Assembly: GCA_964385685.1 (NCBI GenBank)
Contig: CAYLQD010000063.1
Location: 1-22,031 of the forward strand
Reading direction: 5' to 3'
Source: an uncultured Planctomycetota bacterium
GTDB taxonomy: Bacteria; Planctomycetota; PUPC01
Length of the DNA stretch: 22,031 nt
Position numbers and translations under genes: made by a program. Below the pieces are notes generated by a model. It saw only the letters and a list, made by a program, of their open reading frames with translations, was not told where the DNA came from and did no database searches. This document shows positions 1 to 22,031 of the stretch, in pieces (the stretch's first letter is position 1; every line of letters starts with the position of its first letter).

Positions 1-168
1 GGCGGAGGCGACAGGAGGCGAGCCAACGGCCCTCTTGCGGCCTGCGGCCGCCCGGACGGAGTCCGGGCCACCCGACGACGAGCCGGAGGCGACAGGAGGT
101 GGGGCAGCGGCCCTCTTGCGGCCTGCGGCCGCCCGGACGGAGTCCGGGCCACCCGACGACGGGGCGCT
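1..168. repeat. two or more tandem copies of an 84-bp unit inside the 3' (C-terminal) part of the lyase gene; the window starts mid-array
   Basis: gccggaggcgacaggagg...ggccctcttgcggcctgcggccgcccggacggagtccgggccacccgacgacg occurs twice with only a ~9-nt variable block. On the minus strand it encodes the repeated peptide SSGGPDSVRAAAGRKRA(A/V)...PPVAS(G/A). Confidence 0.8.
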
Positions 169-5533: not shown

Positions 5534-6507
5534 TGCCTGTACTCTCCTTCCTCTTTCTGCTTCTTCGCGTAGTCCTGCCGCTCGTTCTGGCTGGGGACGG
5601 GGCGGTCGTCGGGCCCGACGTACTCGATCATGCTGAGGTCGAGCATCTGGACCATCGGCTCGCGCTTCGACGCGGCCCAGGCGCGGCCGCGCTTCATCGA
5701 GTAGAGCGCGTGGGCGGCGCAACTGAACGCGCGGGAGACGCTGCCGATGCACCAGGCGGCGTTGGGCGCGAAGCCGAGATCGCAGAGGGCGGTGTTGCCG
5801 GCGCCGACGACGTTGACGCCGACGTGCGACCGGCCCTCGCGCTCGCGGCGCGCGTGGAAGTGCCGCTCGATGGCCCGCTGGAGTTCGAGATACACGCCGT
5901 TGACTCTCAGCTCCTCCTGCTTGAGGTGGGTCGGTTCCCCCCGCGGGTCCCCGTCGGTGTGCTGCGGCTGGCCGAGGCCCATCACGGGCCGCTTCGCGTC
6001 GAAGTACTCGTCGACGAGCGTCTTGCCGGTCTCATCGAGCGACTTGCCTTCGGCCCGCGCGCGTTCGAGGTGCTTGTTCATCATGTAGCCGTGCGCGGCG
6101 CCGGGCCCGTGGACGCCGCCGAACGTCATGATCGACGCGGCGACGGCGCAGGGCAGGTTGGGCCGGCCGGCGATGACGCCGAGGGCCGCGGCCGCGGAGG
6201 GCGACATCGAGTGCTCCATGAACTCGCCCATCTCGTACTTGAGCATCTCCTCCTCGTTCTCGGTCGGGATGCGGTTCTGGAAGAGGATGAACATCCCGTC
6301 GTAGAACGAGTAGCCCTCTTCGGCGAGGTCGCTCAGGTTGTAGCCGCGGAGGACGGTCTTCTCTTCCGTCTTGAAGGAGATACTCGTCTTGCGCCGGAAG
6401 AGCGGCCGGCGCTCCTTTTCCTCAGGCACCGAGACAGGACGGCGGGGCGGCCCCTCGGACCGGCGCCGCAAGCGAGGCCGTCGGATCTGGATCCCCATCA
6501 GTTTCAT
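5521..6507 (-). CDS. citrate synthase-family protein (divergent), paralogue 2
   Basis: ...TSISFKTEEKTVLRGYNLSDLAEEGYSFYDGMFILFQNRIPTENEEEMLKYEM... is a clear citrate-synthase N-terminal signature. GGVHGPGAAHGYMM resembles the GPLHGGANE region. MGLGQPQHTDGDPRGE resembles GFGHRVYK-x-DPRA, but with Gln at the catalytic His position. The paralogy with the 4490..5533 gene is evident by eye. The ATG at 6507 is preceded by GGAG 6 nt upstream. Confidence 0.55.
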   Translation of the reverse strand: MKLMGIQIRRPRLRRRSEGPPRRPVSVPEEKERRPLFRRKTSISFKTEEKTVLRGYNLSDLAEEGYSFYDGMFILFQNRIPTENEEEMLKYEMGEFMEHSMSPSAAAALGVIAGRPNLPCAVAASIMTFGGVHGPGAAHGYMMNKHLERARAEGKSLDETGKTLVDEYFDAKRPVMGLGQPQHTDGDPRGEPTHLKQEELRVNGVYLELQRAIERHFHARREREGRSHVGVNVVGAGNTALCDLGFAPNAAWCIGSVSRAFSCAAHALYSMKRGRAWAASKREPMVQMLDLSMIEYVGPDDRPVPSQNERQDYAKKQKEEGEYRQWVI

Positions 6508-9826: not shown

Positions 9827-9868
9827 CTCTGTAGGTGGGGATCTCGACCGTATTGAGGGGGCGGCTCG

Positions 9869-10849
9869 ATGGCACCTGCGAACGACGACCGGCCGCGGGG
9901 CGAAGGGCAGGGAACCCCTCCCGATCAGGACGACCGCGTCTCGACCGACCAGCTCGAAGACTGCTCCGCCTACCAGTATCCGCACGCCTTCATCAACAAG
10001 TCCGACCAGCCCATCGTCATCAAGGGGCTCGACCCGAAGTGGCACGAGCAGCTCACTCAGATGTACCTGGGCTACGAGCCCAAGGGCTCGTTCAGCGGCT
10101 TGCCGCCCCTCACGCCCGAGGCCTGCACGCGCTGGGTCGACGGCATGATCGCCCAGGCCGTCAACCTCATTGCGATGTCGTTCGAGGGCGGCGTCGTCGG
10201 CCACACCGCCATCTTTCCCTCGCCCGGGCGACGGTGCGAGATGCTCGTCGTTGTCTCGCCCCCCGACCAAAACCACGGCATCGGGACGGAACTCGTGCGC
10301 TGCACCGTCCACCTGTCGCACGCGCTCGGGTTCGAGCATATCTGGGCGTCGATCGAACTGAAGAACCTCCGATGCCGCCACGTTCTCAAGAAGTGCGGGT
10401 TCGAATGCCTCACGCCCACGAGCACCGACGAGTCGAAGCTCGAGCTGGACCTGCGCGGGTTCCACGACCCCAACCGGACGACCGTCTGTGAGGTCATGGA
10501 CCGGCACGTCATCACGATCCACAAGAACTGGTCGTGTCGCGACGCCGTCGAGATGTTCCTGAGCAGTCCGGTCGGCTCGCTGCCCGTTGTGAACGACCGC
10601 GACGAAGTCGTCGGGATCCTCTCGCAGACCGACCTCCTCGTGCCGGCCAACATCGACAAGCGGGTCGGCGATATCTGCACGCGGAAGGTCATCCGGGTCG
10701 ACGAGGATTGTTCGCTCGCCCGGGTGATTCACATCTTTCAGACGAAGAAGATCTGGTGCATCCCCGTGGTCGATATGGAAGGACGGCTGGCGGGGGTTGT
10801 CACGCGGGAGGACATCCTCGCCTACTTCTCCGACCGCAAGAAGAGGTAG
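9869..10849 (+). CDS. GNAT-family N-acetyltransferase fused to a C-terminal CBS-domain pair
   Basis: 326 aa. An acetyl-CoA-binding Q/R-x-x-G-x-G/A motif (DQNHGIGTELV) sits within ...EMLVVVSPPDQNHGIGTELVRCTVHLSHALGFEHIWASIELKNLRCRHVLKKCGFE. Two CBS-like repeats follow: VCEVMDRHVITIHKNWSCRDAVEMFLSSPVGSLPVVNDRDEVVGILSQTDLL and VGDICTRKVIRVDEDCSLARVIHIFQTKKIWCIPVVDMEGRLAGVVTREDILAYF. Confidence 0.6.
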   Translation: MAPANDDRPRGEGQGTPPDQDDRVSTDQLEDCSAYQYPHAFINKSDQPIVIKGLDPKWHEQLTQMYLGYEPKGSFSGLPPLTPEACTRWVDGMIAQAVNLIAMSFEGGVVGHTAIFPSPGRRCEMLVVVSPPDQNHGIGTELVRCTVHLSHALGFEHIWASIELKNLRCRHVLKKCGFECLTPTSTDESKLELDLRGFHDPNRTTVCEVMDRHVITIHKNWSCRDAVEMFLSSPVGSLPVVNDRDEVVGILSQTDLLVPANIDKRVGDICTRKVIRVDEDCSLARVIHIFQTKKIWCIPVVDMEGRLAGVVTREDILAYFSDRKKR

Positions 10850-10863
10850 GGGCGGGCCCGCCC
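10850..10863. terminator. palindromic GC hairpin GGGCGGGCCCGCCC between the convergent stops of the GNAT-CBS gene and PEP-CTERM gene 1; candidate bidirectional terminator
   Basis: Self-complementary 14-mer sitting in the 19-bp gap between the stop at 10847-10849 (+) and the stop at 10869-10871 (-). Confidence 0.35.
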
Positions 10864-10868
10864 GGCGC

Positions 10869-12260
10869 TCACACCCGTCGCCGTCTGCGGCTGATCCCCA
10901 CCAGCCCAATCAGCCCCAGTCCGCCCGGCTCGGGGACGGGCGGGCGGGTGGCCGGGATGAGCCACAAGGTGAACCCCGGATTCGTCAGCCGGAGCTGGCC
11001 GAGCGGGAAGAAGCGGTCGTAGAGACAGAGCAGCGGGGTCGTGTCCCATTCGTCCGGCTGCAGGTGGTCCATCCAACTCGCGTAGAGGGCCGAGTTCAGC
11101 TCGACGGGCGGCAGGGCCTCGGCCTCGAAGTCGAAGACGAGCACGTTGCCGGGATTGCCGACCTCCGTGAACGTGAACCGCGGCATCACGGGGAGCGTGG
11201 CCTGATACGTACCGCCGTTGATGTGCGTCCGCGTCGCGGTCAGCTCGCCCTGCTGTTGCGTCGGGCTCAGATCGACAGACACGTCGAACTCCACGTCGCC
11301 TCCCGGCATGCCCGTGACGACGATCGGATCGGTGGACTGGAGACTGAGCGCGACGATCTCGATGGGAGTCGTGTCCATGTCGCCGACGCGAGGCAGGTTG
11401 AGTTCACCCGCCCGCGCGATGAGTGTGTCGGTCGAATCGTAGGGATCGGGCGCCGCGGCGTCGGCCGGCACGCCGCCGTCGAACGGATCGGAGCCGGGGC
11501 CGAAGAAGCCCGCGGGAATGGCCGGCACACCGCCCTTGCCGAACTCGACCTGGCACTGGACCGTCTCGTGGCACATCCAGCCGTCGATCGTCGCGCCGCA
11601 GATCGGCAGCAGGCACTCCTGAACGGGATTCTCGTACACGCCGTCGTATCCATCGAGCGGGCCGCCGACCGCTCCCTCGAATCCGGTCATGTATGAGATG
11701 TCGAAGGAGCTGTCGACGTTGTAGTCCCCGTCCGGCAGCTTGGTCAGCGTGACCTGGCCGAGGCACGGCGTGCCGTAGTTGCTCCCGGCGACGTACCAGA
11801 AGCTCTGGAAATTTGGGTCGGGCGGCGCGCCGCCCTCGAGCACGAGCAGGTTCGTGTCGAACGTCTGGACCGGGGCGCCCAGGGTCCGCGGCCCGGCGTG
11901 CGCGCCCATGAAGCCGTTGGCGTCGATCATGCCGCTGAAGCCGGCGAGGTCCCCGAGGCCGATGACGTCGAAATCGGCGTCGCACTGGACCGTCCCCTCG
12001 CATTCGCCGTCCAGCCCGGTGAATACCTCCTGGAAGTTATGGCAGTCCGACAGATCGAGGTCGCACTCGAGTTCCCAGTCGGGCGGCGGGACGGAATCGG
12101 CGCCGAACGTGATCCCGGTCATGTACATCGGGATCGTGATCAGGTCTTCGAGGTTGACCGTTCCCGTGCCGTCGTCGGGCGCGGTCGGCCCGGCCGCCGC
12201 TGGCGCCGCCAGCGCCATCGCGACTGTGACGCCCAATGCTGTCCGCATTATCATCCTCAT
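10869..12260 (-). CDS. PEP-CTERM sorting-domain protein 1 (Cys-rich secreted protein)
   Basis: Signal peptide MRMIMRTALGVTVAMALAAPAAAG. The C-terminus, ...PVPEPGGLGLIGLVGISRRRRRV*, carries the full PEP + hydrophobic helix + Arg-cluster signature of exosortase substrates. An AAAGGGGG Shine-Dalgarno site lies 7 nt before the ATG. Confidence 0.75.
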   Translation of the reverse strand: MRMIMRTALGVTVAMALAAPAAAGPTAPDDGTGTVNLEDLITIPMYMTGITFGADSVPPPDWELECDLDLSDCHNFQEVFTGLDGECEGTVQCDADFDVIGLGDLAGFSGMIDANGFMGAHAGPRTLGAPVQTFDTNLLVLEGGAPPDPNFQSFWYVAGSNYGTPCLGQVTLTKLPDGDYNVDSSFDISYMTGFEGAVGGPLDGYDGVYENPVQECLLPICGATIDGWMCHETVQCQVEFGKGGVPAIPAGFFGPGSDPFDGGVPADAAAPDPYDSTDTLIARAGELNLPRVGDMDTTPIEIVALSLQSTDPIVVTGMPGGDVEFDVSVDLSPTQQQGELTATRTHINGGTYQATLPVMPRFTFTEVGNPGNVLVFDFEAEALPPVELNSALYASWMDHLQPDEWDTTPLLCLYDRFFPLGQLRLTNPGFTLWLIPATRPPVPEPGGLGLIGLVGISRRRRRV

Positions 12261-12353
12261 TCTGTGCCCCCTTTCTTCTCTGCGGCGGCGCGGGCTGTGG
12301 CACAGCCACCCATCCCCCGCCCCGCCTTCCTGTTTCCTGTTCCGCCGCTGCGG

Positions 12354-14492
12354 CTACCTCCTTCTCTTGCGCGCCAATCCGATCCATCCGATCAGCAGCA
12401 GCCCCCACGCGCCCGGCTCGGGAATCGGCTCGCCGGTGCTAGGATCGACGACGACGAACTCGACGCCCGGCGTGTCGCTCTCCGGCTGCAGGTCCCACGT
12501 GTCGCCGAAGTCGATGTCGGCCCAGCCGGCGGCGTCGGACCACGCGTCGCCGCCCAGAGCGTAGTAGAGCGAGACATGCTCGCCCGGGGCGAGGAAGAAC
12601 ACGTCCTCCAGCAGAATATCGAGCGAGACGTTGAGGTCGACGCCGTTGGCCTGCGGGGTGACCACGAACGCGGAGTCGTACGCGGGGGCCTCGATGTCCA
12701 CCAACGGCATCACGAAATCGTCGTCGTCGCTGTCCGTGTTGAATACCGCGACCATGTACTGTCCAAGGCCCTCGTCGTAGAAGAGCTTGATGGTGGCATC
12801 GACCAGCGTCACTTCGGGGCTCGTCTCCGAGGCGGCCTGGGCGGTGAAGGCGAACTCCACCCTGCTGTCCTCTTCGCGGATGGACAGGGCGCCCGTGAGC
12901 AGCCAGCCGAGGTCGAAGTCGATGATTTCATCGCCGCCGACGGGCTCGAGTTGACTGACGAACGCGCCAGCACCCCAGGCGTGACGTGCGGTCGCTTCGG
13001 CGCCAAACGGGATGTACTCCCCCTCGGCGTACGCCTGGGCGGCGACCGAGCCGCCGCCGCCGAACGGGTTAATGGTCGCCCGGCCATGGCCCGAGGCGAC
13101 CGTCTGGGCGCCTTCGGTATGCTCGACGTCCACCGTCACGCCGTACGGGGGCGTATCGTCGGTGACGTCGAAGCTGTCGCCGTCCACTTCACCGGCCCTC
13201 GCACGGGCATAGGTGTCGTCGAGGTCGATGGTCTCGCCGGTCCCGCCGAGGGTCGCGGTGTAGACGGCGCTGCTCCCTTCGCCGTCCATGGTGAACGCGA
13301 CGGTGTCGCCGCGTACGCTCCGGTTGCCGATGCCGAATCCGGCCCAGTCGTAGCCGTTGAAGTCGTCGCCGCTGGCGGTCACCCGGTGCAGCGTGGCGCC
13401 CTCGAGGAAGTACAGGCCCATCGCGCCGTCGTCGTTACGGGTGGCCGTGAACGCGATGTTGTCGCCCCACCGCGACACGCCCTCCATCCCGATGCCGGTG
13501 AAGCCGCTGCCGTCTTCGGGGTCGGTGACGTCGTCGGGCACGGCCGTGGCAAGCGTGCCGCTATCGACCGTGACGATGACGCCGTTGGCACCCAGCGCCA
13601 CGTTGCCCTCGTGGACGCTGTAGCGGAGGAAGTTCCCCACCGGATTCCCGGTGTCGGGCACGATGTCCTGGCTGTCGACAATCTTCAGAAGGTCGCCGCC
13701 GGCCGTGTCCATCGAGTAGAGGCCGTAGCGGCCGACGTTGCTGAATCCGCCGAAGTAGATGCGGGTGCTGCCGCCGACCTCGGTGAACTGCGGATGGTAG
13801 TAGTGGAGGAACGTCTCGCCCGGCGCGTCCGGCACGGCCGCCGTGTCGTCCATGAATCGGGTGAGCGTGTCGGTCGAGTCGTTGAACAGGTAGAGCCCGT
13901 TCTGCGTCAGCGTGTGCGTCGCGGACGTTCCCGCGGCGAAGACCTGGCGGCGGCCGTACACGTCGGTCTGGGTGAACGACTCGAACGGAACGCCGTAGCC
14001 GGGCGCAATCGTCGCCAGGTCGGCGACGCGCGTGCCCGTTCCGCGGTACACGCTCGGCTGGCCGGTGTGAGTGGAGGGCGGATCGATGACATAGCCGTAC
14101 GCCGGGTACGTGCTGTCGGGCTTCTCGTCGAACGCGAAACTCCTCGGCTGATGAAGCAGCTCGCCCGATCCCGAGGGTGGGGCCTCCGTGGTCGTGTCGA
14201 AGACGACGCGGCCGGACAGCGCCATGTGGCTGTCGTAGAGCCCGTAGGTCCCGTCGCTCAGCCAGCCGGTGAAGGCGACGGTTTCGGCGGTCGACTCGTC
14301 GCTCAGAGCGGGGCCCATCCTGGCGTCCGAGACCTGGCGGAACGTCCCGCCTCCGCCGGCCGGCGCCGCCGACTCGCCCGCGATCCGCTTGAACACGAAG
14401 TCGGCCCGCGCGGGCGTCGCACACGCCAGCACGAGACCCGCCGCCACGCCCGACACGAACATCATCACCGCAACTTGCCTGAACATCTTCAT
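12354..14492 (-). CDS. PEP-CTERM sorting-domain protein 2 (large secreted protein, about 712 aa)
   Basis: C-terminus ...GEPIPEPGAWGLLLIGWIGLARKRRR*. The track ORF (to 14699) over-extends through the intergenic motif. The real start is ggaaGGAGATGAAGATGttc (ATG at 14492 or 14486), giving the signal peptide M(KM)FRQVAVMMFVSGVAAGLVLACATPARA. Confidence 0.7.
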   Translation of the reverse strand: MKMFRQVAVMMFVSGVAAGLVLACATPARADFVFKRIAGESAAPAGGGGTFRQVSDARMGPALSDESTAETVAFTGWLSDGTYGLYDSHMALSGRVVFDTTTEAPPSGSGELLHQPRSFAFDEKPDSTYPAYGYVIDPPSTHTGQPSVYRGTGTRVADLATIAPGYGVPFESFTQTDVYGRRQVFAAGTSATHTLTQNGLYLFNDSTDTLTRFMDDTAAVPDAPGETFLHYYHPQFTEVGGSTRIYFGGFSNVGRYGLYSMDTAGGDLLKIVDSQDIVPDTGNPVGNFLRYSVHEGNVALGANGVIVTVDSGTLATAVPDDVTDPEDGSGFTGIGMEGVSRWGDNIAFTATRNDDGAMGLYFLEGATLHRVTASGDDFNGYDWAGFGIGNRSVRGDTVAFTMDGEGSSAVYTATLGGTGETIDLDDTYARARAGEVDGDSFDVTDDTPPYGVTVDVEHTEGAQTVASGHGRATINPFGGGGSVAAQAYAEGEYIPFGAEATARHAWGAGAFVSQLEPVGGDEIIDFDLGWLLTGALSIREEDSRVEFAFTAQAASETSPEVTLVDATIKLFYDEGLGQYMVAVFNTDSDDDDFVMPLVDIEAPAYDSAFVVTPQANGVDLNVSLDILLEDVFFLAPGEHVSLYYALGGDAWSDAAGWADIDFGDTWDLQPESDTPGVEFVVVDPSTGEPIPEPGAWGLLLIGWIGLARKRRR

Positions 14493-14561
14493 CTCCTTCC
14501 CTCCTTTCACAAGTTTCACGTCCGGCCAAGTACCATCCGCACTCATTTCCTTCTTCTCAGC

Positions 14562-14588
14562 GCCTGCCCTGAGCCACGTCGAAGGGCC
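14562..14588 (-). repeat. ~27-nt recurring motif (sense GGCCCTTCGACGTGGCTCAGGGCAGGC), copy A. Other copies at 15704-15731 (B), 20106-20132 (C, inside the gene 8 coding tail) and 18968-18988 (D, inverted, overlapping the gene 7 stop)
   Basis: Near-identical strings read directly from the sequence. Contains an internal GCCCT...AGGGC stem. In copy C the same nucleotides encode the ...ALRRGSGRALGRKGRRR* tail of protein 8. In copies A and B the equivalent frame would read ALRRGSGQAL(R/K).RR(K/R) followed by a stop. Confidence 0.55.
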
Positions 14589-14604
14589 AGCATCGCGATT
14601 CTGC

Positions 14605-14680
14605 GCGACGGCAACGCCGTCGCGGGCGGCCTTCACCTCTACGGCTTCTCGCCGGTTTGGCCCGTGTTGGCCAAACCGGC
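14605..14680 (-). terminator. two strong hairpins 3' of PEP-CTERM gene 3: GCGACGGC-aac-GCCGTCGC (14605-14623) and a 12-bp stem GCCGGTTTGGCC-cgtgtt-GGCCAAACCGGC (14651-14680)
   Basis: Perfect stems read from the sequence. No U-tract follows, so intrinsic-terminator status is uncertain. The first hairpin is duplicated at 15748-15766, 3' of gene 4. Confidence 0.35.
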
Positions 14681-14720
14681 CCGGGCGGCTGATCGCCACA
14701 GCAATCAGCTTGCGGCCCTC

Positions 14721-15641
14721 CTACGAAAGGGCCGCCCGCCTCCTCCTCCGCAGCAGCAGGAGGGCCGCTATCAGCCCGAGCCCCGCGGGCTCGTGGACGG
14801 GCTCGCCGGCCAGGAAGTGGCCCGACTCCGACGTCCACGTGACGCCCTCGGGCACCTGCACCGGGCCGAGCGTTACGGTGTGGTGGTAGTGGACGCCCAA
14901 ATGAATCCCGCTCATGGCCAGCGGGTCCGGATTGACCCCCGCCGTCTCGGCGTCGGCCTGGATGGATGCGCTCATGTCGAACTCGGTAACCTTCTCGGTG
15001 TAGGAGAAGAAGGGCTCGATCGTCGTCCGTAGCTCGCCCTGCGTGTTGACCGTTCTGCCGCCGGGCGCCTCCACCAGGTCGACGATGTCCTGGAACGTCG
15101 TGATCCCGAGCGCCAGCCGCACCTCCGCGAGCAGGGCAAACCCCGTCACCGGCGGGCCGCCCGGATCCTGGAGAAGGGCCTCGACAAGGCCGGTGATCGT
15201 GTATGGAATCACGACGTCGACGCCCTCGGGATAGTTGCCCGGCGGCGTGGTGATGAGCAGCTTGTCGCGCATCTCCACGAACGAACTGGCGGTCACTCTC
15301 GACCAGCCGCCGGGGTATGCGGCGTTCTCAATGGCGGCGTATGCCCCCATCTCGGCCGTCCGCAGGTCGACAAGCCCATAGCCCTCGGCGATGTCCCCTT
15401 CAACCCCGGCGAGCGTGCCGTCGCCGACGAGGGTCGGCTCCTGGCTGAACTCCATCTCGTCGATAAACTGAATCTCTCCATCCGGGCCCGGGTCGACCTC
15501 TAGGTACATCATCCGCGAGGTGACGTGGGTCGTCTCGGCCACCGCGGCCGACGCGCACCAGGCGAGCACGGCGATCGCAACCGCCGCCGCGCAGCACGCC
15601 AGTGGCCGCAGCGGTCTTCCTGTGTTCCGCTCGTTCCTCAT
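14721..15641 (-). CDS. PEP-CTERM sorting-domain protein 3 (paralogue of protein 4)
   Basis: Real start MRNERNTGRPLRPLACCAAAVAIAVLAWCASAAVA, with its ATG at 15639-15641 preceded by GGAAGGAGGAGGaca. The track ORF extends to 15782 through the upstream motif. C-terminus ...HEPAGLGLIAALLLLRRRRRAALS*. Confidence 0.7.
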   Translation of the reverse strand: MRNERNTGRPLRPLACCAAAVAIAVLAWCASAAVAETTHVTSRMMYLEVDPGPDGEIQFIDEMEFSQEPTLVGDGTLAGVEGDIAEGYGLVDLRTAEMGAYAAIENAAYPGGWSRVTASSFVEMRDKLLITTPPGNYPEGVDVVIPYTITGLVEALLQDPGGPPVTGFALLAEVRLALGITTFQDIVDLVEAPGGRTVNTQGELRTTIEPFFSYTEKVTEFDMSASIQADAETAGVNPDPLAMSGIHLGVHYHHTVTLGPVQVPEGVTWTSESGHFLAGEPVHEPAGLGLIAALLLLRRRRRAALS

Positions 15642-15657
15642 TGTCCTCCTCCTTCCC

Positions 15658-15674
15658 GGCGCCCCCTTGGCGCC
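15658..15674 (-). promoter_or_regulatory. leader hairpin GGCGCC-ccctt-GGCGCC immediately 5' of the Shine-Dalgarno site of PEP-CTERM gene 3 (member of a recurring element)
   Basis: GGCGCC is self-complementary, so GGCGCC-N5-GGCGCC forms a 6-bp stem with a 5-nt loop. It lies roughly 1-6 nt 5' of the GGAGGAG-type Shine-Dalgarno site in the mRNA sense. Other copies: 16738-16754 (gene 4, loop gttgc), 20825-20841 (gene 8, loop gttgt), 21549-21565 (gene 9, loop gttgt) and a variant GCGCC-gcgcg-GGCGC at 17471-17485 (gene 5). Confidence 0.5.
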
Positions 15675-15812
15675 CGTCCCGTTCAACGCCTCCTCGTCTT
15701 CAACGCCTGCCCTGAGCCACGTCGAAGGGCCATCATCGCCAGCCGCGCGACGGCAACGCCGTCGCGTTGGCAGAATGGCCAAGAAGCCATTCGGCCAGCG
15801 GCCCGCTCGTGC

Positions 15813-16721
15813 TCAGCGTCTCTTTCTTCGCAGCAGCACGAGGGCCGCCATCAGTCCGAGCCCCGCCGGCTCTGGAACGGGCTCGCCGGCCAGGAAGAAG
15901 CCCGACTCCGACGTCCACGTGACGCCCTCCGGCACCTGCAGCGGCCCGAGCGTCACCGTGTGGTCGTAGTAGACGCCCAGATCGATCCCGCTCGCGGCCA
16001 GGGGATCCGGATCGACCCCCGCCGTCTCGGCCTGGGCATCGATGTACGCGGCCATGCCCATCTCGGTGACCTTCTCGGTGTAGGAGAAGAAGGGTTCGAT
16101 CGTCGTCCGCAGCTCGCCCTGCCGGTTGACCGTCACGACGCTCGGCGCCGACACCAGGTCGACGATATCCTCGAACGTGGTGATCCCCAGCGCCATCCTC
16201 ACCGCCGCGAGCATGTTGAACCCCGTCACCGGCCCGCCGAGCGGGTTCTGGAGGTCGGCCTGGAGAACGCCGGTGATCTGGTACGGGATGATGACGGGGA
16301 CTCCATCGGGGTAGTTGCCCGGCGGCGTGGTGATGAGCAGCGTGTCACGCATCTCCACGGACGAGCTGGCGGTCGCGCTCGACCAGCCGCTGGGGTACGA
16401 GGCGTTTTGGATGGCGGCGGACGCCCCCAGCTCGCCCGTCCGCAGGTCGACGCGCCCCTGGCCCTCGGCCATGTCGCCTTCGATCCCGGCGAGCATGCTG
16501 CCGCCGATCAGCATCGCTTCGTGGCTGAACACCGTCTCGTCAACGAACTGGAACTCGCCGTCCTCGCCCGGGTCGACCTCCAGGTACATCATCCGCGAGG
16601 TGATGTGGACTTGCTGCTGAGCCGCAGCGGACGCGCACCATGCGAGCAGGGCGATCACAACACCCGCCGCGCAGCACGCCAGCGGCCGCAGCGACCCTCC
16701 TGCATTTCTTCCGTTCCTCAT
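15813..16721 (-). CDS. PEP-CTERM sorting-domain protein 4 (paralogue of protein 3)
   Basis: MRNGRNAGGSLRPLACCAAGVVIALLAWCASAAA...PVPEPAGLGLMAALVLLRRKRR*. Same leader and Shine-Dalgarno site as gene 3. Extensive identity to gene 3 is visible at the DNA level. Confidence 0.75.
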   Translation of the reverse strand: MRNGRNAGGSLRPLACCAAGVVIALLAWCASAAAQQQVHITSRMMYLEVDPGEDGEFQFVDETVFSHEAMLIGGSMLAGIEGDMAEGQGRVDLRTGELGASAAIQNASYPSGWSSATASSSVEMRDTLLITTPPGNYPDGVPVIIPYQITGVLQADLQNPLGGPVTGFNMLAAVRMALGITTFEDIVDLVSAPSVVTVNRQGELRTTIEPFFSYTEKVTEMGMAAYIDAQAETAGVDPDPLAASGIDLGVYYDHTVTLGPLQVPEGVTWTSESGFFLAGEPVPEPAGLGLMAALVLLRRKRR

Positions 16722-16762
16722 TGTCCTCCTCCTTCCTGGCGCCGTTGCGGCGCCCGTTATGC

Positions 16763-17455
16763 CTACCGCCTTCTTCTTCTCGCCGTAATCATTGCCAGCC
16801 CGAGCAAGCCGAGGCCGGCGGGCTCGGGGATGGGCGGGCCGGCAGTCCGGATGTCGGAAAGGACGTACGTCCCGACGCCATTGTTGATTCCGAAGGTGAC
16901 GTAGAGCGCATGGGCGAAATCGGTCGGGCCGGCGATGAAATCGCTGTACAAGAACTCGTAGACGCCGGGGCCCGTGATGTGATGCGTAAGCTCCGAGTCG
17001 TTCACTGCCATGTCGCTCACCTTGGTGACCATGCTGTCCATCGGCCCGGCGCCGTCGGCTCGGGTCAAGGTGACCAGAATGCGGTCGTGCTGCCCGCCTT
17101 CCGTGAGGTCGACGTTGTTCAGGCCGGCTTGGCCCACGCCGTCGTAGAAGAACGCCGCGAGCGCTCCGCCACCATCGCCGGTGTTGTTGAACGCAATGAT
17201 CGTGGCGTCTGGGTCCGGTGTCAGTTGCAGGTCGGCGGTCACGGACGCAGTTGGCGCGCTACCCGCGTTGAGCGAGACCTCCCGCTCGGTGCCGACGATG
17301 CTGCTTGCCGGGCCCGTCTGGATGTCGGTGTTCGTCCCCGGGTGGCTCAGCGAAAACGGCCCCTCTTCGAAGTCATCAATCACGACCGCTTTGGCCGGCG
17401 CCGCCAACAGCACGACGACGGTACAACATAGCATCACGATCCCCGTCTTTGTCAT
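16763..17455 (-). CDS. PEP-CTERM sorting-domain protein 5 (about 230 aa)
   Basis: Start MTKTGIVMLCCTVVVLLAAPAKA (ATG at 17453-17455, with GGAGGAG 8 nt upstream). C-terminus ...PIPEPAGLGLLGLAMITARRRRR*. The track ORF over-extends to 17521. Confidence 0.7.
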   Translation of the reverse strand: MTKTGIVMLCCTVVVLLAAPAKAVVIDDFEEGPFSLSHPGTNTDIQTGPASSIVGTEREVSLNAGSAPTASVTADLQLTPDPDATIIAFNNTGDGGGALAAFFYDGVGQAGLNNVDLTEGGQHDRILVTLTRADGAGPMDSMVTKVSDMAVNDSELTHHITGPGVYEFLYSDFIAGPTDFAHALYVTFGINNGVGTYVLSDIRTAGPPIPEPAGLGLLGLAMITARRRRR

Positions 17456-17495
17456 CTTGTCCTCTCCTCCGCGCCGCGCGGGCGCTTCAGCTGCG

Positions 17496-18842
17496 TCACC
17501 TCCTTCGCCGTATGAATCCAAGCATCCCCAGGCCGATCAATCCCAGAGCGCCCGGCTCGGGAATGATGAGGTCTCGCATGGCCGACGCGTGCGACGAGAT
17601 CGCGGCGAGGGTCGATGCGTCGGTGTCGTAGACCGAATACCAGCCGGGCGTTTCGTGCGGCGGGTCGCCGATCCACTGCGGGACCGGATCGCCCGGGCGG
17701 CCCTCGCCGCCCCACGCCCAGAAGTTGTCGCCCGCAGCCGACCCGCCCGACGACGCGGACGCATAGACCGCGTCGAACATCGCGGCGTAGAACGCGTCGC
17801 GGTGCGACGTCGGCGCGGCCGGGTCGTGGTGGTCGGGCCCGGTCCAGCCGTCGCGCGCCAGGCCGAACTCCTCGAGCACAACGGGCTTGGCGAGGATGTT
17901 GAGCGCCTCCTGCTCGTGGGTCTGGAAGTAGGCGAGCGCCTGGGCTTCGGCCGCGGCGTAGGTTGTGGGATCGGTCGGGTTGTACCAGCCCCAGTTCTCC
18001 GGCCAGATGTGCGTCGTCGCGTAGTCGATCTTTTCGCCGTTGTGCGTCTCGACGAACGTCCGGTCCTCCCATCCGGCGAGCCACGTCTCGGCGCCGGTCT
18101 CGCCCTCGAAGCCGGTCGTCACGAGGTGGTTGGGATCGAGCGACTTGATGTACGCGGCGGTGTCGTCGATCCAGTCGGCGGGGAACCGCCGCGGCTCGTT
18201 GGCCAGCTCCCACGCGAAGATGGTCGGGTCGTCTTTGTACGCCTCCCCGTTCACGGTGTTGACGCGGCCAACGACCTCGTCGATGTGGTCGCGGAACCAC
18301 GTCTGGCACTGCGCGTTCGTGTAGAACTGCGCGCTGTAGTTCTGGAACGCGTTCCAGTCGCCGGGATAGGGGATCGATCCGCCGATATCCCACTGAACGT
18401 ATTGGGCCATGCCGCCGGACCAGTGCCAGAAGTTGTTGAGGACCATCACGGCCCGCATGTCGCGCTGGTTCATCTCGTCGAGCAGGTGGTCGAGCCCGCC
18501 GAAGACGGCCGGGTTGTAGACGCCGGGCGCGGTCTGGAGCGACGGGACGGCGCGGTAGGGCTCTGTGTCGGGTCCTTCGGAGCCGGCCAGGATGCGCAGG
18601 TTGGTGATGCCGGCGGCCTGGAGGCGGTCGAGTTCGCGGCTGAGGCGCGCGCGGTTGCCGTCTGGGCCGACGACGCCGAGGTTCATCCCCTGCCAGAGGT
18701 TCGCGCCGACGAAGTTGTAGGGCTGTCCGTCGAGTTCAAAGGCCACGCCGTTGACGGCGACGAACCCGAAGTTGTCGGCCCGCGCCATTACCGCCGAGGC
18801 CAGCAGCGCCCCGGCGATGACTATGGATAGACACTTGCTCAC
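17496..18842 (-). CDS. glycoside hydrolase family 5 endo-beta-mannanase-like enzyme carrying a PEP-CTERM sorting tail
   Basis: Signal peptide MSKCLSIVIAGALLASAVMARA (GTG start, with GGAG 9 nt upstream). It has ...IFAWELANEPR..., the GH5 catalytic-acid NEP motif in the WELxNEPR context typical of GH5 mannanases. It also has ...KPVVLEEFGL..., the nucleophile E in a TEFG-like context. C-terminus ...IIPEPGALGLIGLGMLGFIRRRR*. Confidence 0.65.
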   Translation of the reverse strand: MSKCLSIVIAGALLASAVMARADNFGFVAVNGVAFELDGQPYNFVGANLWQGMNLGVVGPDGNRARLSRELDRLQAAGITNLRILAGSEGPDTEPYRAVPSLQTAPGVYNPAVFGGLDHLLDEMNQRDMRAVMVLNNFWHWSGGMAQYVQWDIGGSIPYPGDWNAFQNYSAQFYTNAQCQTWFRDHIDEVVGRVNTVNGEAYKDDPTIFAWELANEPRRFPADWIDDTAAYIKSLDPNHLVTTGFEGETGAETWLAGWEDRTFVETHNGEKIDYATTHIWPENWGWYNPTDPTTYAAAEAQALAYFQTHEQEALNILAKPVVLEEFGLARDGWTGPDHHDPAAPTSHRDAFYAAMFDAVYASASSGGSAAGDNFWAWGGEGRPGDPVPQWIGDPPHETPGWYSVYDTDASTLAAISSHASAMRDLIIPEPGALGLIGLGMLGFIRRRR

Positions 18843-18983
18843 TGTAGTGACTCCGGCCAGGGAATCACGCCGCGCAAGGCGCGCCGCATCCTCTCATTGC
18901 GGCCCCCGAGGGGCCGTTCTCGATCTGTTCCACCCGCCCAAGCGGGTGCTCAGCTTCTTTTGCGTCGCCGCCCTTCGACGGGC

Positions 18984-19907
18984 TCAGCGTCTTCGCTGCC
19001 GCTTCGACAGCCCGATCGCTGCCAACCCGAGGAACCCGAGCCCGGCCGGCTCGGGGATGATGGTGAGGTCCAACGCAACGCCCCCCGGGCCCGAAAGCCC
19101 CGTCACGACGTCCTCGGCGTTGCTGCCGTCGAGATCCGCGCGCTGGATCGAGTTCAGGTCGCGATCGGCCCAGTACATCTTGCCCGCGGCCACGTCGAGC
19201 GCGATCCCACGGGGGTTCGGCTGCGACACCAGAAGATCCTCGACGTTGCTGCCATCGAGGTTCGCACGCTGGATCTTGTCCGTTGCGAAAGCCGTCCAGT
19301 ACACCTTGCCGCCGGCAGGGTCCACCGCGATCCCCCAAGCGTCCTCAATTCCGCTGCTCACCAGGGTCTCGACGTTACCGCCGTCCAGATCGGCGCGCCT
19401 GACCAGGTCGTCAGCACCCGCACCCTGCTGCTCGACCCAGTACATCTTGCCGTTGGTCAGGTCGAGGTCGATGGCAACGGGGACCAAGAGGCCGGTCGTT
19501 ACGAGGTTCTCCACGTTGCTGCCATCGAGGTCCGCGCGTCGGATCGCGTCCGCCCACGCCTCGGTCCAGTAGACCTTGTCCGCGGCCAGGTCGAGCGCGA
19601 CGCCCGCCGCGCCATCGGCGCCGGTGATCAGGTCCTGGACGTTGCTGCCGTCCAGATTCGCGCGCTGGACCTTGTCTGCGAGCTCGTCCGCCCAGTACAT
19701 CTTGCCCCCGGCACCATCCAGCGAGATTTCAGCCGGGACGTCCAGCCCTGTCGTTACCAGGTCCTCGACGTTCGAGCCGTCCAGGTCGGCGCGCTGGATC
19801 TTGTGCGCGTCATGGTCCGTCCAGTACACCTTGGCGGCCTGTGCGCGCGGCGCCGCGAACACCGCGACGCAAACCGTCACCACCAAACCCACGATTGCCT
19901 TCCTCAT
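18984..19907 (-). CDS. six-bladed YWTD (LDL-receptor class B-type) beta-propeller protein with a PEP-CTERM tail
   Basis: Six ~42-aa repeats of the form K(V/M)YW(T/A)D....IQRA(D/N)LDGSNVEDLVT.GL..P.GIALD. Start MRKAIVGLVVTVCVAVFAAPRAQA (ATG at 19905-19907, with GGAGG 8 nt upstream). C-terminus ...TIIPEPAGLGFLGLAAIGLSKRQRRR*. The track ORF over-extends to 19976. Confidence 0.65.
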   Translation of the reverse strand: MRKAIVGLVVTVCVAVFAAPRAQAAKVYWTDHDAHKIQRADLDGSNVEDLVTTGLDVPAEISLDGAGGKMYWADELADKVQRANLDGSNVQDLITGADGAAGVALDLAADKVYWTEAWADAIRRADLDGSNVENLVTTGLLVPVAIDLDLTNGKMYWVEQQGAGADDLVRRADLDGGNVETLVSSGIEDAWGIAVDPAGGKVYWTAFATDKIQRANLDGSNVEDLLVSQPNPRGIALDVAAGKMYWADRDLNSIQRADLDGSNAEDVVTGLSGPGGVALDLTIIPEPAGLGFLGLAAIGLSKRQRRR

Positions 19908-20077
19908 CTCTCCATCCTCCAAAAGGTTCCTCTGCTTCAACACCACGCAGGCGACCGCCGCCTGCGTCCGCTCCAACTCACCAGCGCCAGGCCGATGAGC
20001 CCAGCCCCCTTCGTCGTCGATTGGCTCGCATCACCTCCTTTCCGCGGGCGGCGGCTGTCATCCGGCCCGCCCGTCTC

Positions 20078-20806
20078 TCAGCGCCGTCTCCCCTTTCTTC
20101 CCAGTGCCCGTCCTGAGCCCCGTCGAAGGGCCAGCGCCGCCGGCCCGATCAGAGCCAGCCCGGCCGGCTCGGGGACGACGGGCGGTGGCGGGACGCCGTC
20201 ACCCGTTATCACAAAGGCGAGGTCGAGCGACTCGGCCGTGATCAGGTCGGGGTAACTCGATACGTCGGCGGTCTTCCAGCCCCAATTGCCGTGGGCAGCC
20301 GTCACGGAGATCCCCAGCCAGTAGGTGGTGCCCTCCTCCTGGAAGAACGGATCGGCGATGTTCGCAACGTTGTATTGATAGCACTCGGTATGGTCGTGCT
20401 GAGCGTAGTTACCCGAGCCCGGGTCGAACCAGCCCTGGTCGCCCGTACCGTAGAAGCGTTCCGCCCATTCCCCTGGGTAAAGGTCGCGCTGCCAGAGCAG
20501 GACGTCCGGTTTGCTCTGGTCATCCGCGTAGATGCTGAGGCGGATCTCGGAGAGCGTGCCCACAGTGTCGCCCTTCCATGAGCCCCAGAAATGGATGTCC
20601 GTGACCGGTCCGCTCGCCGTGCACGTCCAGTCGTCGGCCAGGACCGTGTCACCATACGCGGCCACGTCCCAGCCGTTCAGGTCGGGCAGTTGCGGAAAGT
20701 GCATCTTATGCCCGTCGCCGGGGTCCCAGTCGGCGCGGGCCGCCGCAGCGACCAACGCAACGGCCGCGAGCACAACCGCCGCTCCGCCGATAGCCTTCGT
20801 CTTCAT
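20078..20806 (-). CDS. PEP-CTERM sorting-domain protein 8 with an unusually extended basic tail
   Basis: Start MKTKAIGGAAVVLAAVALVAAAARA (ATG at 20804-20806, preceded by the GGCGCC hairpin and a GGAGGAG Shine-Dalgarno site). C-terminus ...VVPEPAGLALIGPAALALRRGSGRALGRKGRRR*. The track ORF over-extends to 21025. Confidence 0.65.
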   Translation of the reverse strand: MKTKAIGGAAVVLAAVALVAAAARADWDPGDGHKMHFPQLPDLNGWDVAAYGDTVLADDWTCTASGPVTDIHFWGSWKGDTVGTLSEIRLSIYADDQSKPDVLLWQRDLYPGEWAERFYGTGDQGWFDPGSGNYAQHDHTECYQYNVANIADPFFQEEGTTYWLGISVTAAHGNWGWKTADVSSYPDLITAESLDLAFVITGDGVPPPPVVPEPAGLALIGPAALALRRGSGRALGRKGRRR

Positions 20807-20850
20807 CGTGCTCTCCTCCTTCTTGGCGCCGTTGTGGCGCCTGTTTGTCC

Positions 20851-21532
20851 TCAGCGTCTCTTCGTTCTCAGCCCGACGAGCGCCAGGCCGAGCAGGCCCA
20901 GGCCGGCGGGCTCGGGGATAGCAGGGCTCGCGGCCACCTGTGTGACGCTCAACGCGCTCCACGACCGGTCGATCGGCCAGCCGAAATCCCAGCGGGCATA
21001 CAGCCACGAGCCGTCCGTGAGCCACATGTAGATTCCGTTGGAACCAGCGTTGTAGTCCGCACTTTCAGGGACATGCGGGCCGGGACCGGTGCTGCCCCAA
21101 TCCCCAGCTGTGCCTGCCGAGCCCTCGGACCCGATGTACTGGTGGTTCGTGCCGAAAGCCCCGACCCACGGGATGTCGGCCTCCATGGTAGTCCTCGCCG
21201 CCGGCGCCGTGGAAGCAGCTTTCGATGGGCTGCCAGTCATTACCGCCCGCCGTCGGGTCGAAGAACTCGATGGTGAACAGTTCGGTGGTTGTCGGAACGC
21301 CGGGGCCGCTCAGTTCCCAGTAGACGCGGCGGACGCCGTCCATCGTATTGGCCCCCCAGGCGCTGGTGCCGGCGTATCCGGCGCCCGCGTATTCAGTCCA
21401 GCCGGAGCCCACAAGGTGGTCGACCGGCAGGACCCAACTGTCCCCGACTCCCGCCAACGCAGCGCTGCACGAGAAGAACAGAGCGGCCGCCGCCACCGCA
21501 CCACACAACGTCCAATATCCCATCTTACTCAT
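20851..21532 (-). pseudogene. PEP-CTERM sorting-domain gene 9 disrupted by an apparent +1 frameshift near 21175-21195 (pseudogene or sequencing error)
   Basis: The 5' part (track ORF 21065..21532) opens with a good signal peptide, MSKMGYWTLCGAVAAAALFFSCSAALAG. It reads as protein up to ...EFFDPTAGGNDWQPIESCFHGAGGEDYHGG and then becomes Arg/His-rich junk. The 3' part lies in the frame of ORF 20851..21240 and reads ...ADIPWVGAFGTNHQYIGSEGSAGTAGDWGS...WDFGWPIDRSWSALSVTQVAASPAIPEPAGLGLLGLALVGLRTKRR*. The two frames differ by one nucleotide around ccatggaggccgac. Confidence 0.55.
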
Positions 21533-21574
21533 GACGCTCCTCCTCTCCGGCGCCGTTGTGGCGCCTGCTTGCTC

Positions 21575-22031
21575 TCAGCGTCTCTTGTTCCTCAGCCCAA
21601 CGAGCGCCAGCCCGATCAACGCGAGCCCTGCCGGCTCGGGAATCGGCGGCGGCTCTCCACCATGCGCATTGATGACGAGCGAAGTCGCGGCGGTGAAGGA
21701 CGCAAGGTTGTGATCTTGGTTGACGTATGCCGGCGCAACGCCGCCCGTGCTGCTCGGAACCGACGGCCCAAGCGAGATCGTGATATCGCTGGCGGGCGCA
21801 GAGATAATCGCCTGGTACGTCGCCAGCAGGAGCGGCTCCGGCACGGTGGGCAGCGGAGTAGTCACGGCGAGGAAGACGTTGTTGCCCGATCCGATGTTGA
21901 GCGCGCCCGGCGGGAGGACGCGGTCCAGAACGATGCCGGGGGCCGCCAGCAGCTCGGACGTGTCGATGCTGAACTCGTAGCCCCGCACCCCCGTGTCACC
22001 GGCCGGGAATCCGTCGGCGACGACATAGAAA
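21575..22031 (-). CDS. PEP-CTERM sorting-domain protein 10 (5' end beyond the window)
   Basis: The frame stays open upstream of the listed GTG at 21988 to the window edge (...FYVVADGFPAGDTGVRGYEFSIDTS...). C-terminus ...PPPIPEPAGLALIGLALVGLRNKRR*. Confidence 0.65.
   Translation of the reverse strand, partial: FYVVADGFPAGDTGVRGYEFSIDTSELLAAPGIVLDRVLPPGALNIGSGNNVFLAVTTPLPTVPEPLLLATYQAIISAPASDITISLGPSVPSSTGGVAPAYVNQDHNLASFTAATSLVINAHGGEPPPIPEPAGLALIGLALVGLRNKRR

Follow-up and report, generated by a model that had tools for sequence, protein, structure and literature searches.

A co-directional array of ten genes with PEP-CTERM-like tails in an uncultured planctomycete

Ten adjacent genes share a C-terminal sorting signal

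We analysed a stretch of 22,031 nucleotides from an uncultured Planctomycetota bacterium (GenBank assembly GCA_964385685.1, contig CAYLQD010000063.1), hereafter the window (positions 1 to 22,031, the numbering used for all array coordinates), and identified between 10869 and 22031 ten open reading frames (ORFs) on the minus strand, each ending in a PEP motif followed by a hydrophobic helix and a cluster of Arg and Lys residues. The array consists of nine intact genes and one frameshifted gene, all co-directional, and it is likely a cluster of PEP-CTERM cargo genes whose products are processed by an exosortase. PEP-CTERM proteins are abundant in environmental bacteria and poorly understood. The window is contained in a 23.7-kb metagenome scaffold (ENA ERZ23498668, SUTE22-1 scaffold_5081; L001), so that ten instances of the signal are found on one contig. 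Lengths in amino acids (aa), the GC content at third codon positions (GC3) where given and the tails of the ten genes are as follows.

Gene 1, 10869..12260, minus strand: 463 aa, signal peptide, 10 Cys, no known domain, GC3 0.89, tail PEPGGLGLIGLVGISRRRRRV
Gene 2, 12354..14492, minus strand: 712 aa, signal peptide, no known domain, tail PEPGAWGLLLIGWIGLARKRRR
Gene 3, 14721..15641, minus strand: 306 aa, paralog of gene 4, degenerate tail HEPAGLGLIAALLLLRRRRRAALS
Gene 4, 15813..16721, minus strand: 302 aa, paralog of gene 3, tail PEPAGLGLMAALVLLRRKRR
Gene 5, 16763..17455, minus strand: 230 aa, no known domain, tail PEPAGLGLLGLAMITARRRRR
Gene 6, 17496..18842, minus strand: 448 aa, GH5 exo-beta-1,4-mannosidase-like enzyme, tail PEPGALGLIGLGMLGFIRRRR
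Gene 7, 18984..19907, minus strand: 307 aa, six-bladed YWTD (LDL-receptor class B) beta-propeller, tail PEPAGLGFLGLAAIGLSKRQRRR
Gene 8, 20078..20806, minus strand: 242 aa, DUF7901 beta-sandwich, tail PEPAGLALIGPAALALRRGSGRALGRKGRRR
Gene 9, 20851..21532, minus strand: about 227 codons, frameshifted, tail of the PEP-CTERM half PEPAGLGLLGLALVGLRTKRR
Gene 10, 21575..22031 (window edge), minus strand: C-terminal 152 codons of 199 aa within the window, tail PEPAGLALIGLALVGLRNKRR

All ten tails listed in an initial annotation of the window were found letter for letter at the ends of minus-strand ORFs. A search pattern consisting of xEP, a hydrophobic stretch and a basic cluster, confined to the last 40 residues, matched exactly the ten array ORFs among the 194 six-frame stop-to-stop segments of at least 60 aa in the window, while the same pattern applied as a control to 1.32 Mb from 80 unrelated loci gave 8 matches, about two of them genuine and none adjacent to another. 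Since all ten array ORFs and nothing else in the window were matched, whereas control matches were few and never adjacent, the clustering of ten such tails is far beyond chance. The three-part signal was found by this pattern in 10 of 10 genes, with genes 3 and 8 as deviants. A P-E-P triplet stands directly before the helix in nine genes; the tail of gene 3 has HEP in its place and four extra residues.

The gene calls themselves are consistent throughout the array, as GC3 was 0.76-0.91 in every called frame and purine-rich Shine-Dalgarno sites were located upstream of the gene starts, and the large plus-strand ORFs across the array are shadow frames of a sequence with 67% GC. Signal peptides were judged by a heuristic based on a charged n-region, a hydrophobic core and an AXA-like site, and by this measure the N-termini are signal-peptide-like, with 12-residue hydrophobic cores of 2.15-3.40 on the Kyte-Doolittle scale. 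The earlier statement that every gene has a signal peptide agrees with these N-termini and does not hold for the gene 9 ORF as read, which is interrupted by the frameshift, or for gene 10 as seen in the window, which excludes its N-terminus; in the full contig, gene 10 is a complete ORF with a signal peptide (L001 254-853). The products are built of an N-terminal Sec-type signal peptide, a distinct extracytoplasmic cargo and a PEP-CTERM sorting signal.

Scores of the tails and weight of the PEP-CTERM assignment

The whole proteins and the isolated tails were scored with TIGR02595 (cutoff 16 bits) and PF07589 (gathering score 20.7 bits), giving the following values in bits.

Gene 1: TIGR02595 whole protein 15.3, isolated tail 21.0
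Gene 2: TIGR02595 whole protein 16.7, isolated tail 22.8
Gene 3: TIGR02595 whole protein no hit, isolated tail 15.0 (below cutoff)
Gene 4: TIGR02595 whole protein no hit, isolated tail 13.4 (below cutoff)
Gene 5: TIGR02595 whole protein 18.0, isolated tail 22.3
Gene 6: TIGR02595 whole protein 19.8, isolated tail 25.2; PF07589 25.4
Gene 7: TIGR02595 whole protein 15.8, isolated tail 20.5
Gene 8: TIGR02595 whole protein no hit, isolated tail no hit
Gene 9: TIGR02595 whole protein 18.2, isolated tail 22.5
Gene 10: TIGR02595 whole protein 17.6, isolated tail 22.1; PF07589 22.1

TIGR02595 was at or above its cutoff for five of the ten whole proteins (genes 2, 5, 6, 9, and 10) and for seven of the ten isolated tails (20.5-25.2 bits), and the whole-protein scores of genes 1 and 7 were within 0.7 bit below it. 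The initial annotation had staked its reading on most members not falling below this cutoff, and the reading survived with a thin margin, the outcome being borderline. The homologs of individual genes bear on the same question. Orthologs of the GH5 enzyme at 79-84% identity retain the PEP tail, which only 7 of the 120 closest GH5 homologs carry, and the intact homologs of gene 9 likewise end in PEP-CTERM. Gene 8 fails the tail model, yet its membership in DUF7901 gives independent support, since 92 of the 120 closest DUF7901 homologs have a PEP-CTERM tail, some of them being named PEP-CTERM proteins of Planctomycetota. The sequence comparisons support the prediction that most array members are PEP-CTERM cargo.

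Several observations weigh against this assignment. The PF07589 gathering score was passed by genes 6, 9, and 10 only (3 of 10), the tails of genes 3, 4, and 8 remained below the TIGR02595 cutoff even when isolated, and gene 9 is out of frame, so that at most nine products would be made as drawn. The absence of exosortase, EpsH/XrtA and PrsK/PrsR genes from the window had been pointed out before, and our domain scans of the window ORFs found none either; furthermore, no exosortase, EpsH, PrsK/PrsR or exopolysaccharide (EPS) gene was found on the 23.7-kb contig, and no exosortase is listed within 10 kb on either side of related PEP-CTERM loci (eight distinct contexts). Finally, the operon-like packing of the array is not the norm described for PEP-CTERM genes (Haft et al., 2006; PMC1569441).

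Judged from what is established for PEP-CTERM proteins and exosortases, the array products would be exported through Sec, the tail would hold the protein in the membrane, and an exosortase encoded elsewhere in the genome would cleave at or near the PEP motif, after which the cargo would be released or passed to the cell surface or matrix. Experimental work on the system in Planctomycetota has been very scarce.

Cargo of the array genes

The cargo domains had been described as unrelated to one another, including a duplicated pair of approximately 300 aa, a 712-aa protein, a GH5 enzyme and a YWTD propeller, and all of these were seen; the sole kinship within the array is that of genes 3 and 4 (73.6% identity), and DUF7901 in gene 8 can be added. 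The description of gene 1 as Cys-rich applies only mildly, with 10 Cys in 463 aa. Gene 6 matches the exo-beta-1,4-mannosidase PDB 4lyp (E=1e-105, residues 16-411) as well as Man5A (PDB 1uuq; 3.9e-88), and PF26410 is recorded for its product; the similarity to characterised GH5 mannosidases extends over the full length and the catalytic domain is intact (79-84% identical to orthologs), and mannosidase activity is predicted. The propeller of gene 7 was recognised by PF00058 at 2.6e-32 across 6 stretches and contains internal DNA repeats (D2, D5, and D6).

Gene 8 scored 126.8 bits with PF25470 (DUF7901; cutoff 24) and has 994 homologs at E<=1e-5. An AlphaFold (AF2) model built from 64 sequences, with a mean pLDDT of 86.6, shows an N-terminal (signal) helix, a beta-sandwich and a C-terminal helix at residues 214-230. 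A Foldseek search with this model returned nothing significant; the modelled beta-sandwich resembles a carbohydrate-binding module, suggesting that the protein may bind carbohydrate. For genes 1, 2, 4, and 5 no sequence relative in Pfam or NCBIfam and no useful one in PDB was found beyond the tail, and a search of 5.8 billion clusters gave one distinct homolog of gene 10. By these searches, the cargo other than that of genes 6, 7 and 8 and of the pair of genes 3 and 4 is lineage-restricted and matches no family.

The frameshift in gene 9 and the repeat-derived tail of gene 8

The signal-peptide half of gene 9 (21065-21532) and its PEP-CTERM half (20851-21240) overlap in different frames. Since the conceptual fusion of the two aligns in one stretch with intact PEP-CTERM homologs of 210-230 aa across the junction GE-Y-P-MEA, and since GC3 switches frame near L001 1210-1240, gene 9 is a single gene broken by a frameshift at approximately 21184-21190 (TAC C ATG). 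The lesion would be either a loss of 2 nt or a gain of 1 nt, and the Tyr-Pro-Met of the homologs at this place suggests a 2-nt loss from the C run. At the frameshift site there were zero mismatches among the four assemblies aligned to L001 (0 with L004, and single mismatches elsewhere for L002 and L003). A programmed frameshift was considered but is not favoured, as TAC C ATG shows no evident slippery heptamer and, set against the homologs, has the look of a 2-nt loss.

A dispersed repeat resembling repetitive extragenic palindromic elements (family D9, core GCCCTTCGAC-N3-4-GCTCAG) was found by exact core match at five sites of the window, namely 7008 (+), 14548-14596 (-), 15691-15739 (-), 18971 (+), and 20092-20140 (-). 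The leaders of genes 2 and 3 each contain a copy, a reversed one sits at the gene 7 stop, and another lies inside the 3' end of the gene 8 coding region. The gene 8 tail sequence RRGSGRALGRKGRRR is the translation of this repeat, which supplies an extended basic tail; gene 8 deviates by a Pro within the helix and a 15-residue extension. In a related contig (L007, described below), another PEP-CTERM protein terminates in the same tail derived from the repeat (RRGSGRALRRKRS).

Junctions and transcription

From gene 10 to gene 1 the intergenic gaps measure 42, 44, 170, 141, 40, 41, 171, 228, and 93 nt, in agreement with the short gaps of 40-230 bp reported initially. The junctions with recognisable structure are the following.

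14493..14720, minus strand: leader of gene 2, 228 nt, GC-rich hairpins and one copy of the dispersed repeat (14548-14596)
15642..15812, minus strand: leader of gene 3, 171 nt, dispersed repeat 15691-15739 and GGCGCC-N5-GGCGCC at 15658-15674, then Shine-Dalgarno
16722..16762, minus strand: junction of genes 5 and 4, 41 nt, GGCGCC-GCAAC-GGCGCC at 16738-16754, then AGGAGGAG
17456..17495, minus strand: junction of genes 6 and 5, 40 nt, variant hairpin GCGCC-CGCGC-GGCGC, then Shine-Dalgarno
20807..20850, minus strand: junction of genes 9 and 8, 44 nt, GGCGCC-ACAAC-GGCGCC at 20825-20841, then AGGAGGAG; part of the 107-nt repeat D8
21533..21574, minus strand: junction of genes 10 and 9, 42 nt, GGCGCC-ACAAC-GGCGCC at 21549-21565, then AGGAGGAG

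The element GGCGCC-N5-GGCGCC occurs 4 times in the window compared to 0.06 expected, each time a few bases before the AGGAGGAG of genes 9, 8, 4, and 3. Conserved leader structures, which had been assigned to the gaps in general, were thereby recovered at five of the nine junctions (four with the exact element and that of gene 5 with a variant) and not at the other four. Four of the junctions align over the whole unit of tail, stop codon, element and Shine-Dalgarno site, and the tail-junction modules of genes 10 and 9 are 80% identical over 107 nt despite unrelated cargo. As GGCGCC is its own reverse complement, the paired element is both a direct and an inverted repeat and may act as an RNA hairpin or as a DNA site. 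Neither the remainder of the window nor the related loci contain the exact motif; the related arrays have analogous GC hairpins before Shine-Dalgarno sites, and in L007 the gene 5 homolog has an orthologous leader.

A terminator scan of the window gave 4 terminator-like sites compared to 4.2 expected, which is the chance level, and no T-tract terminators mark transcription units. Three weak sigma-70-like promoter matches were obtained (0.7 expected), only one of them on the coding strand and inside gene 5, and the sigma-54 pattern TGGCAC-N5-TTGCW gave 2 weak matches, both on the non-coding strand (4.6 expected). No Rfam family reached its gathering score in the window. As the junctions of 40-44 nt contain nothing besides a strong Shine-Dalgarno site and the element, two sub-operons are probably co-transcribed, one of genes 10-9-8 and one of genes 6-5-4, while the gaps of 93-228 nt may hold further promoters. 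The junction hairpin could set the relative expression of neighbouring cistrons.

Related arrays differ in order and content

The nearest named genome is a Planctomycetota metagenome-assembled genome (MAG; GCA_043819695.1), whose GH5 gene is 79-80% identical. When a genome collection was scanned with the GH5 alignment, the one near relative was a Planctomycetota MAG (80% identity), which has no array at that place; all else consisted of GH5 genes of at most 65% identity across many phyla. Three related loci carry arrays of their own.

L007, ENA contig: shared genes 83-89% identical (GH5 included), at least six PEP-CTERM genes in 5 kb
L091: contains the one homolog of gene 10, at least four PEP-CTERM genes
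L178, NCBI MAG GCA_030631085.1, contig DAOVLV010000004.1: 11 co-directional PEP-CTERM genes within 12 kb

In L007, an ortholog of gene 5 (83%) lies upstream of GH5, which is the reverse of the order in the window, and the other cargo differs. The same contig also has a 59-aa ORF that consists of little beyond a signal peptide and a PEP-CTERM tail, and about five tandem repeats of approximately 66 nt downstream of the last PEP-CTERM gene (L007 3381-3560 and 5126-5554). In L178, near-identical tails are found on unrelated cargo, and the other related contexts have one to three PEP-CTERM genes each. Genes for sigma-54-dependent activators occur in or beside PEP-CTERM clusters of two MAGs (L178 4925-5884 and L182 14454-15977), which recalls PrsR-type control; the window has none.

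The array had been said to continue past the right edge of the window, which the longer contigs do not bear out. Past this edge they add only the remainder of gene 10 and about 250-320 nt of non-coding DNA. The gene 10 homolog in L091, which has a conserved start region, is the first gene of its array and follows a non-coding region of 420 nt, suggesting that gene 10 also opens the array in the window. Within L091 4672-7508, an in-frame stop and frame changes were seen in PEP-CTERM genes; coverage is 6x, so these may be errors, and the pattern mirrors that of gene 9. At least five assemblies end within approximately 65 nt of each other upstream of gene 10 (L001 1-253, L004 1-317), and a more distant relative (L008-L010) shows the like, its contigs breaking off a short way upstream of the PEP-CTERM cluster. 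The shared breakpoints suggest a repeat or a change in coverage at this place; an exact scan of JGI metagenome contigs with the contig-end pattern gave 0 matches and hence no longer sequence.

The arrays vary in gene order and content between relatives. Sequence comparison shows an array that expands and alters through local duplication (genes 3 and 4), through the spread of a common module of tail and junction, and through rearrangement from one relative to another. The role of the module in the reshuffling is our inference. We tentatively propose, as a possibility that we regard as unlikely on balance, that tail, stop codon, GGCGCC-N5-GGCGCC and Shine-Dalgarno site form a portable junction module, at which homologous recombination slots in, duplicates and reorders unrelated genes for secreted proteins within a co-transcribed operon. 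If this were true, planctomycete PEP-CTERM arrays would evolve in a cassette-like manner without a dedicated recombinase.

Surroundings of the array and alternative explanations

Outside the array, the window contains the following features.

About 100-2310, minus strand: heparinase II/III-like polysaccharide lyase off the left edge, with an N-terminal hydrophobic LLLGAGC segment
2820-3933: lower-GC segment (56% compared to approximately 67% GC) with a 201-aa HExxH protein and a 165-aa ORF having a weak Xre-like helix-turn-helix match
4490-6507, minus strand: two adjacent citrate-synthase-like genes with matches to the citrate-synthase C-terminal domain
9828-10867: GNAT-CBS protein, convergent with gene 1

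The lower-GC segment may be a foreign insert or a toxin-antitoxin-like pair, and the citrate-synthase-like pair may encode citryl-CoA lyase-like or ATP-citrate-lyase-like subunits. At the left edge, an 81-nt unit with a GC-rich palindrome occurs twice in tandem with 94% identity (3-161), downstream of the heparinase-like lyase gene, and a 42-nt tandem repeat in 4.5 copies (7504-7698) encodes a Pro/Ala/Asp/Glu-rich C-terminal extension of a 740-aa SPFH/flotillin protein.

The initial annotation regarded the array as a dedicated island, a description that the surroundings do not bear out. We weighed the alternative of an island of mobile or cassette type, whether integron-like or acquired horizontally, that happens to carry PEP-CTERM genes and has the intergenic hairpins as recombination sites. 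The co-directional genes with hairpin-bearing junctions would agree with this explanation, as would the differences in order and content between relatives sharing 83-89% identical genes and the break of at least five assemblies at the same point upstream of gene 10. In addition, a close relative (L179; 6419-7461 compared to 9828-10867 of the window) shares only the GNAT-CBS gene, at 89.5% DNA identity, and the homology stops exactly at the stop codon of gene 1. However, on the other side it ends approximately 40 nt upstream of the GNAT-CBS start, and since both flanks differ, L179 gives no island boundary specific to the array. A scan anchored on the SPFH/flotillin gene covered 80 loci of 59-79% identity with no synteny and no arrays, and because synteny was lacking this anchor says nothing about insertion; a genome-collection scan with the GNAT-CBS neighbour found no relatives. 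On sequence grounds, no insertion boundary can be drawn from either anchor. Moreover, the window yielded no gene for an integrase, a transposase or a tRNA, no window ORF contains an integrase domain, and by inspection the hairpins are unlike attC sites, being 17 nt long and placed between stop codon and Shine-Dalgarno site as compared to the 57-141 nt of attC. The array (GC 66-68%, GC3 0.76-0.91) is also close to the flanking genes in composition. An island of this type is quite improbable.

A second explanation is that the tails act as ordinary anchors that fix the C-terminus in the membrane, or as signals for another enzyme (myxosortase, rhombosortase or an unknown protease), and that the proteins are not exosortase substrates. 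The MYXO-CTERM model TIGR03901 (cutoff 20 bits) gave 14.5-21.7 bits on nine of the ten isolated tails, with gene 5 above cutoff and gene 8 without a hit, and MYXO-CTERM was the best-scoring family for genes 3 and 4; the three tails that fail TIGR02595, and the lack of an exosortase in any contig examined, are likewise compatible with a different sorting route. In contrast, TIGR02595 or a PEP-CTERM subfamily model led on the other eight tails, and P-E-P, or HEP in one gene, stands directly before the helix. MYXO-CTERM is defined by an invariant Cys in the motif before the helix (bioRxiv 10.1101/2023.06.07.544157), and on inspection this Cys is absent from all ten tail motifs; the TIGR03901 scores derive from the helix and the basic part of the tails. 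A GlyGly motif was not found in the tails either. Sorting by an enzyme other than exosortase, or simple anchoring, is accordingly quite improbable.

That the array arose in part through misassembly, with repeated tails leading to chimeric joins, or is a pseudogene cluster in decay, in which several genes may be non-functional, is very improbable: the frameshift of gene 9, the HEP and extra residues of gene 3, the repeat that invaded the tail of gene 8, the in-frame stop and frameshifts of L091 at 6x coverage and the breaking of contigs near arrays could all be read in this way, but the same sequence is present in four other assemblies (two from JGI) made from different samples with different assemblers, the five are consistent across as much as 15 kb, each of the other four differing from L001 by 0-1 mismatches, nine frames are uninterrupted with high GC3, and the catalytic domain of GH5 is intact.

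Significance of the array

Read as a cluster of PEP-CTERM cargo genes processed by an exosortase, the array leaves the current picture of the system unchanged and adds a well-characterised example from an under-sampled lineage. It would make a compact test bed, with nine intact substrates of very different cargo within 11 kb, including one putative GH5 mannosidase that can be assayed. With its closely packed genes and common junction element it departs from the first description of mostly monocistronic genes, and the rearranged arrays in relatives hint at diversification of the surface-protein repertoire.

Comparison with known systems

Planctomycetes belong to the phyla for which PEP-CTERM proteins have been reported, and EpsH/exosortase was found to co-occur with PEP-CTERM (Haft et al., 2006; PMC1569441). 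The array shares with the PEP-CTERM/exosortase (EpsH, XrtA) system the signal peptide, the diverse and often novel cargo, the order of PEP motif, transmembrane helix and basic cluster, the many paralogous tails per organism, and an origin in a phylum of known carriers. Unlike that system, in which more than 65% of PEP-CTERM genes were monocistronic with leaders of more than 200 nt (Haft et al., 2006; PMC1569441), the array genes are arranged head to tail with gaps down to 40 nt; furthermore, no sigma-54 motif was found, no PrsK/PrsR, EPS or exosortase gene is in view, and three tails are below cutoff. Only from Proteobacteria has the combination of the sigma-54 motif with nearby PrsK/PrsR and EPS genes been described (PMC1569441), and these features of the proteobacterial XrtA-type regulon were not seen here, the sigma-54 scan being below chance and PrsK/PrsR-type or EPS domains being absent from the window.

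In the scytonemin (scy) operon of Nostoc punctiforme, several PEP-CTERM proteins depend on cyanoexosortase B (PMC12188702). This operon resembles the array, with its probable sub-operons, in combining multiple PEP-CTERM genes in one transcription unit, the exosortase dependence being a feature of scy. It differs in being a biosynthetic pathway with few PEP-CTERM proteins among enzymes, whereas here all genes encode cargo and no shared pathway is evident. Another counterpart is the array of GCA_030631085.1 (L178), which has 11 co-directional PEP-CTERM genes with mixed cargo including DUF7901 and near-identical tails on unrelated cargo. In contrast to the window, five of its genes are DUF7901 paralogs in tandem and a sigma-54 activator gene is embedded among them, its GC content is 57% compared to 67% here, and GGCGCC-N5-GGCGCC is lacking. 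With the LPXTG/sortase clusters of Gram-positive bacteria, an analogy drawn by Haft et al. (2006; PMC1569441), the array has in common the three-part C-terminal layout of motif, helix and basic cluster and the many substrates per transpeptidase, while motif and enzyme family are different and the envelope here is Gram-negative in type.

Since both the array of L178 and the scytonemin operon (PMC12188702) cluster PEP-CTERM genes, the dense packing departs from the monocistronic generalisation yet is not unique. In conclusion, the array is a further example of the known PEP-CTERM system and not a new system.

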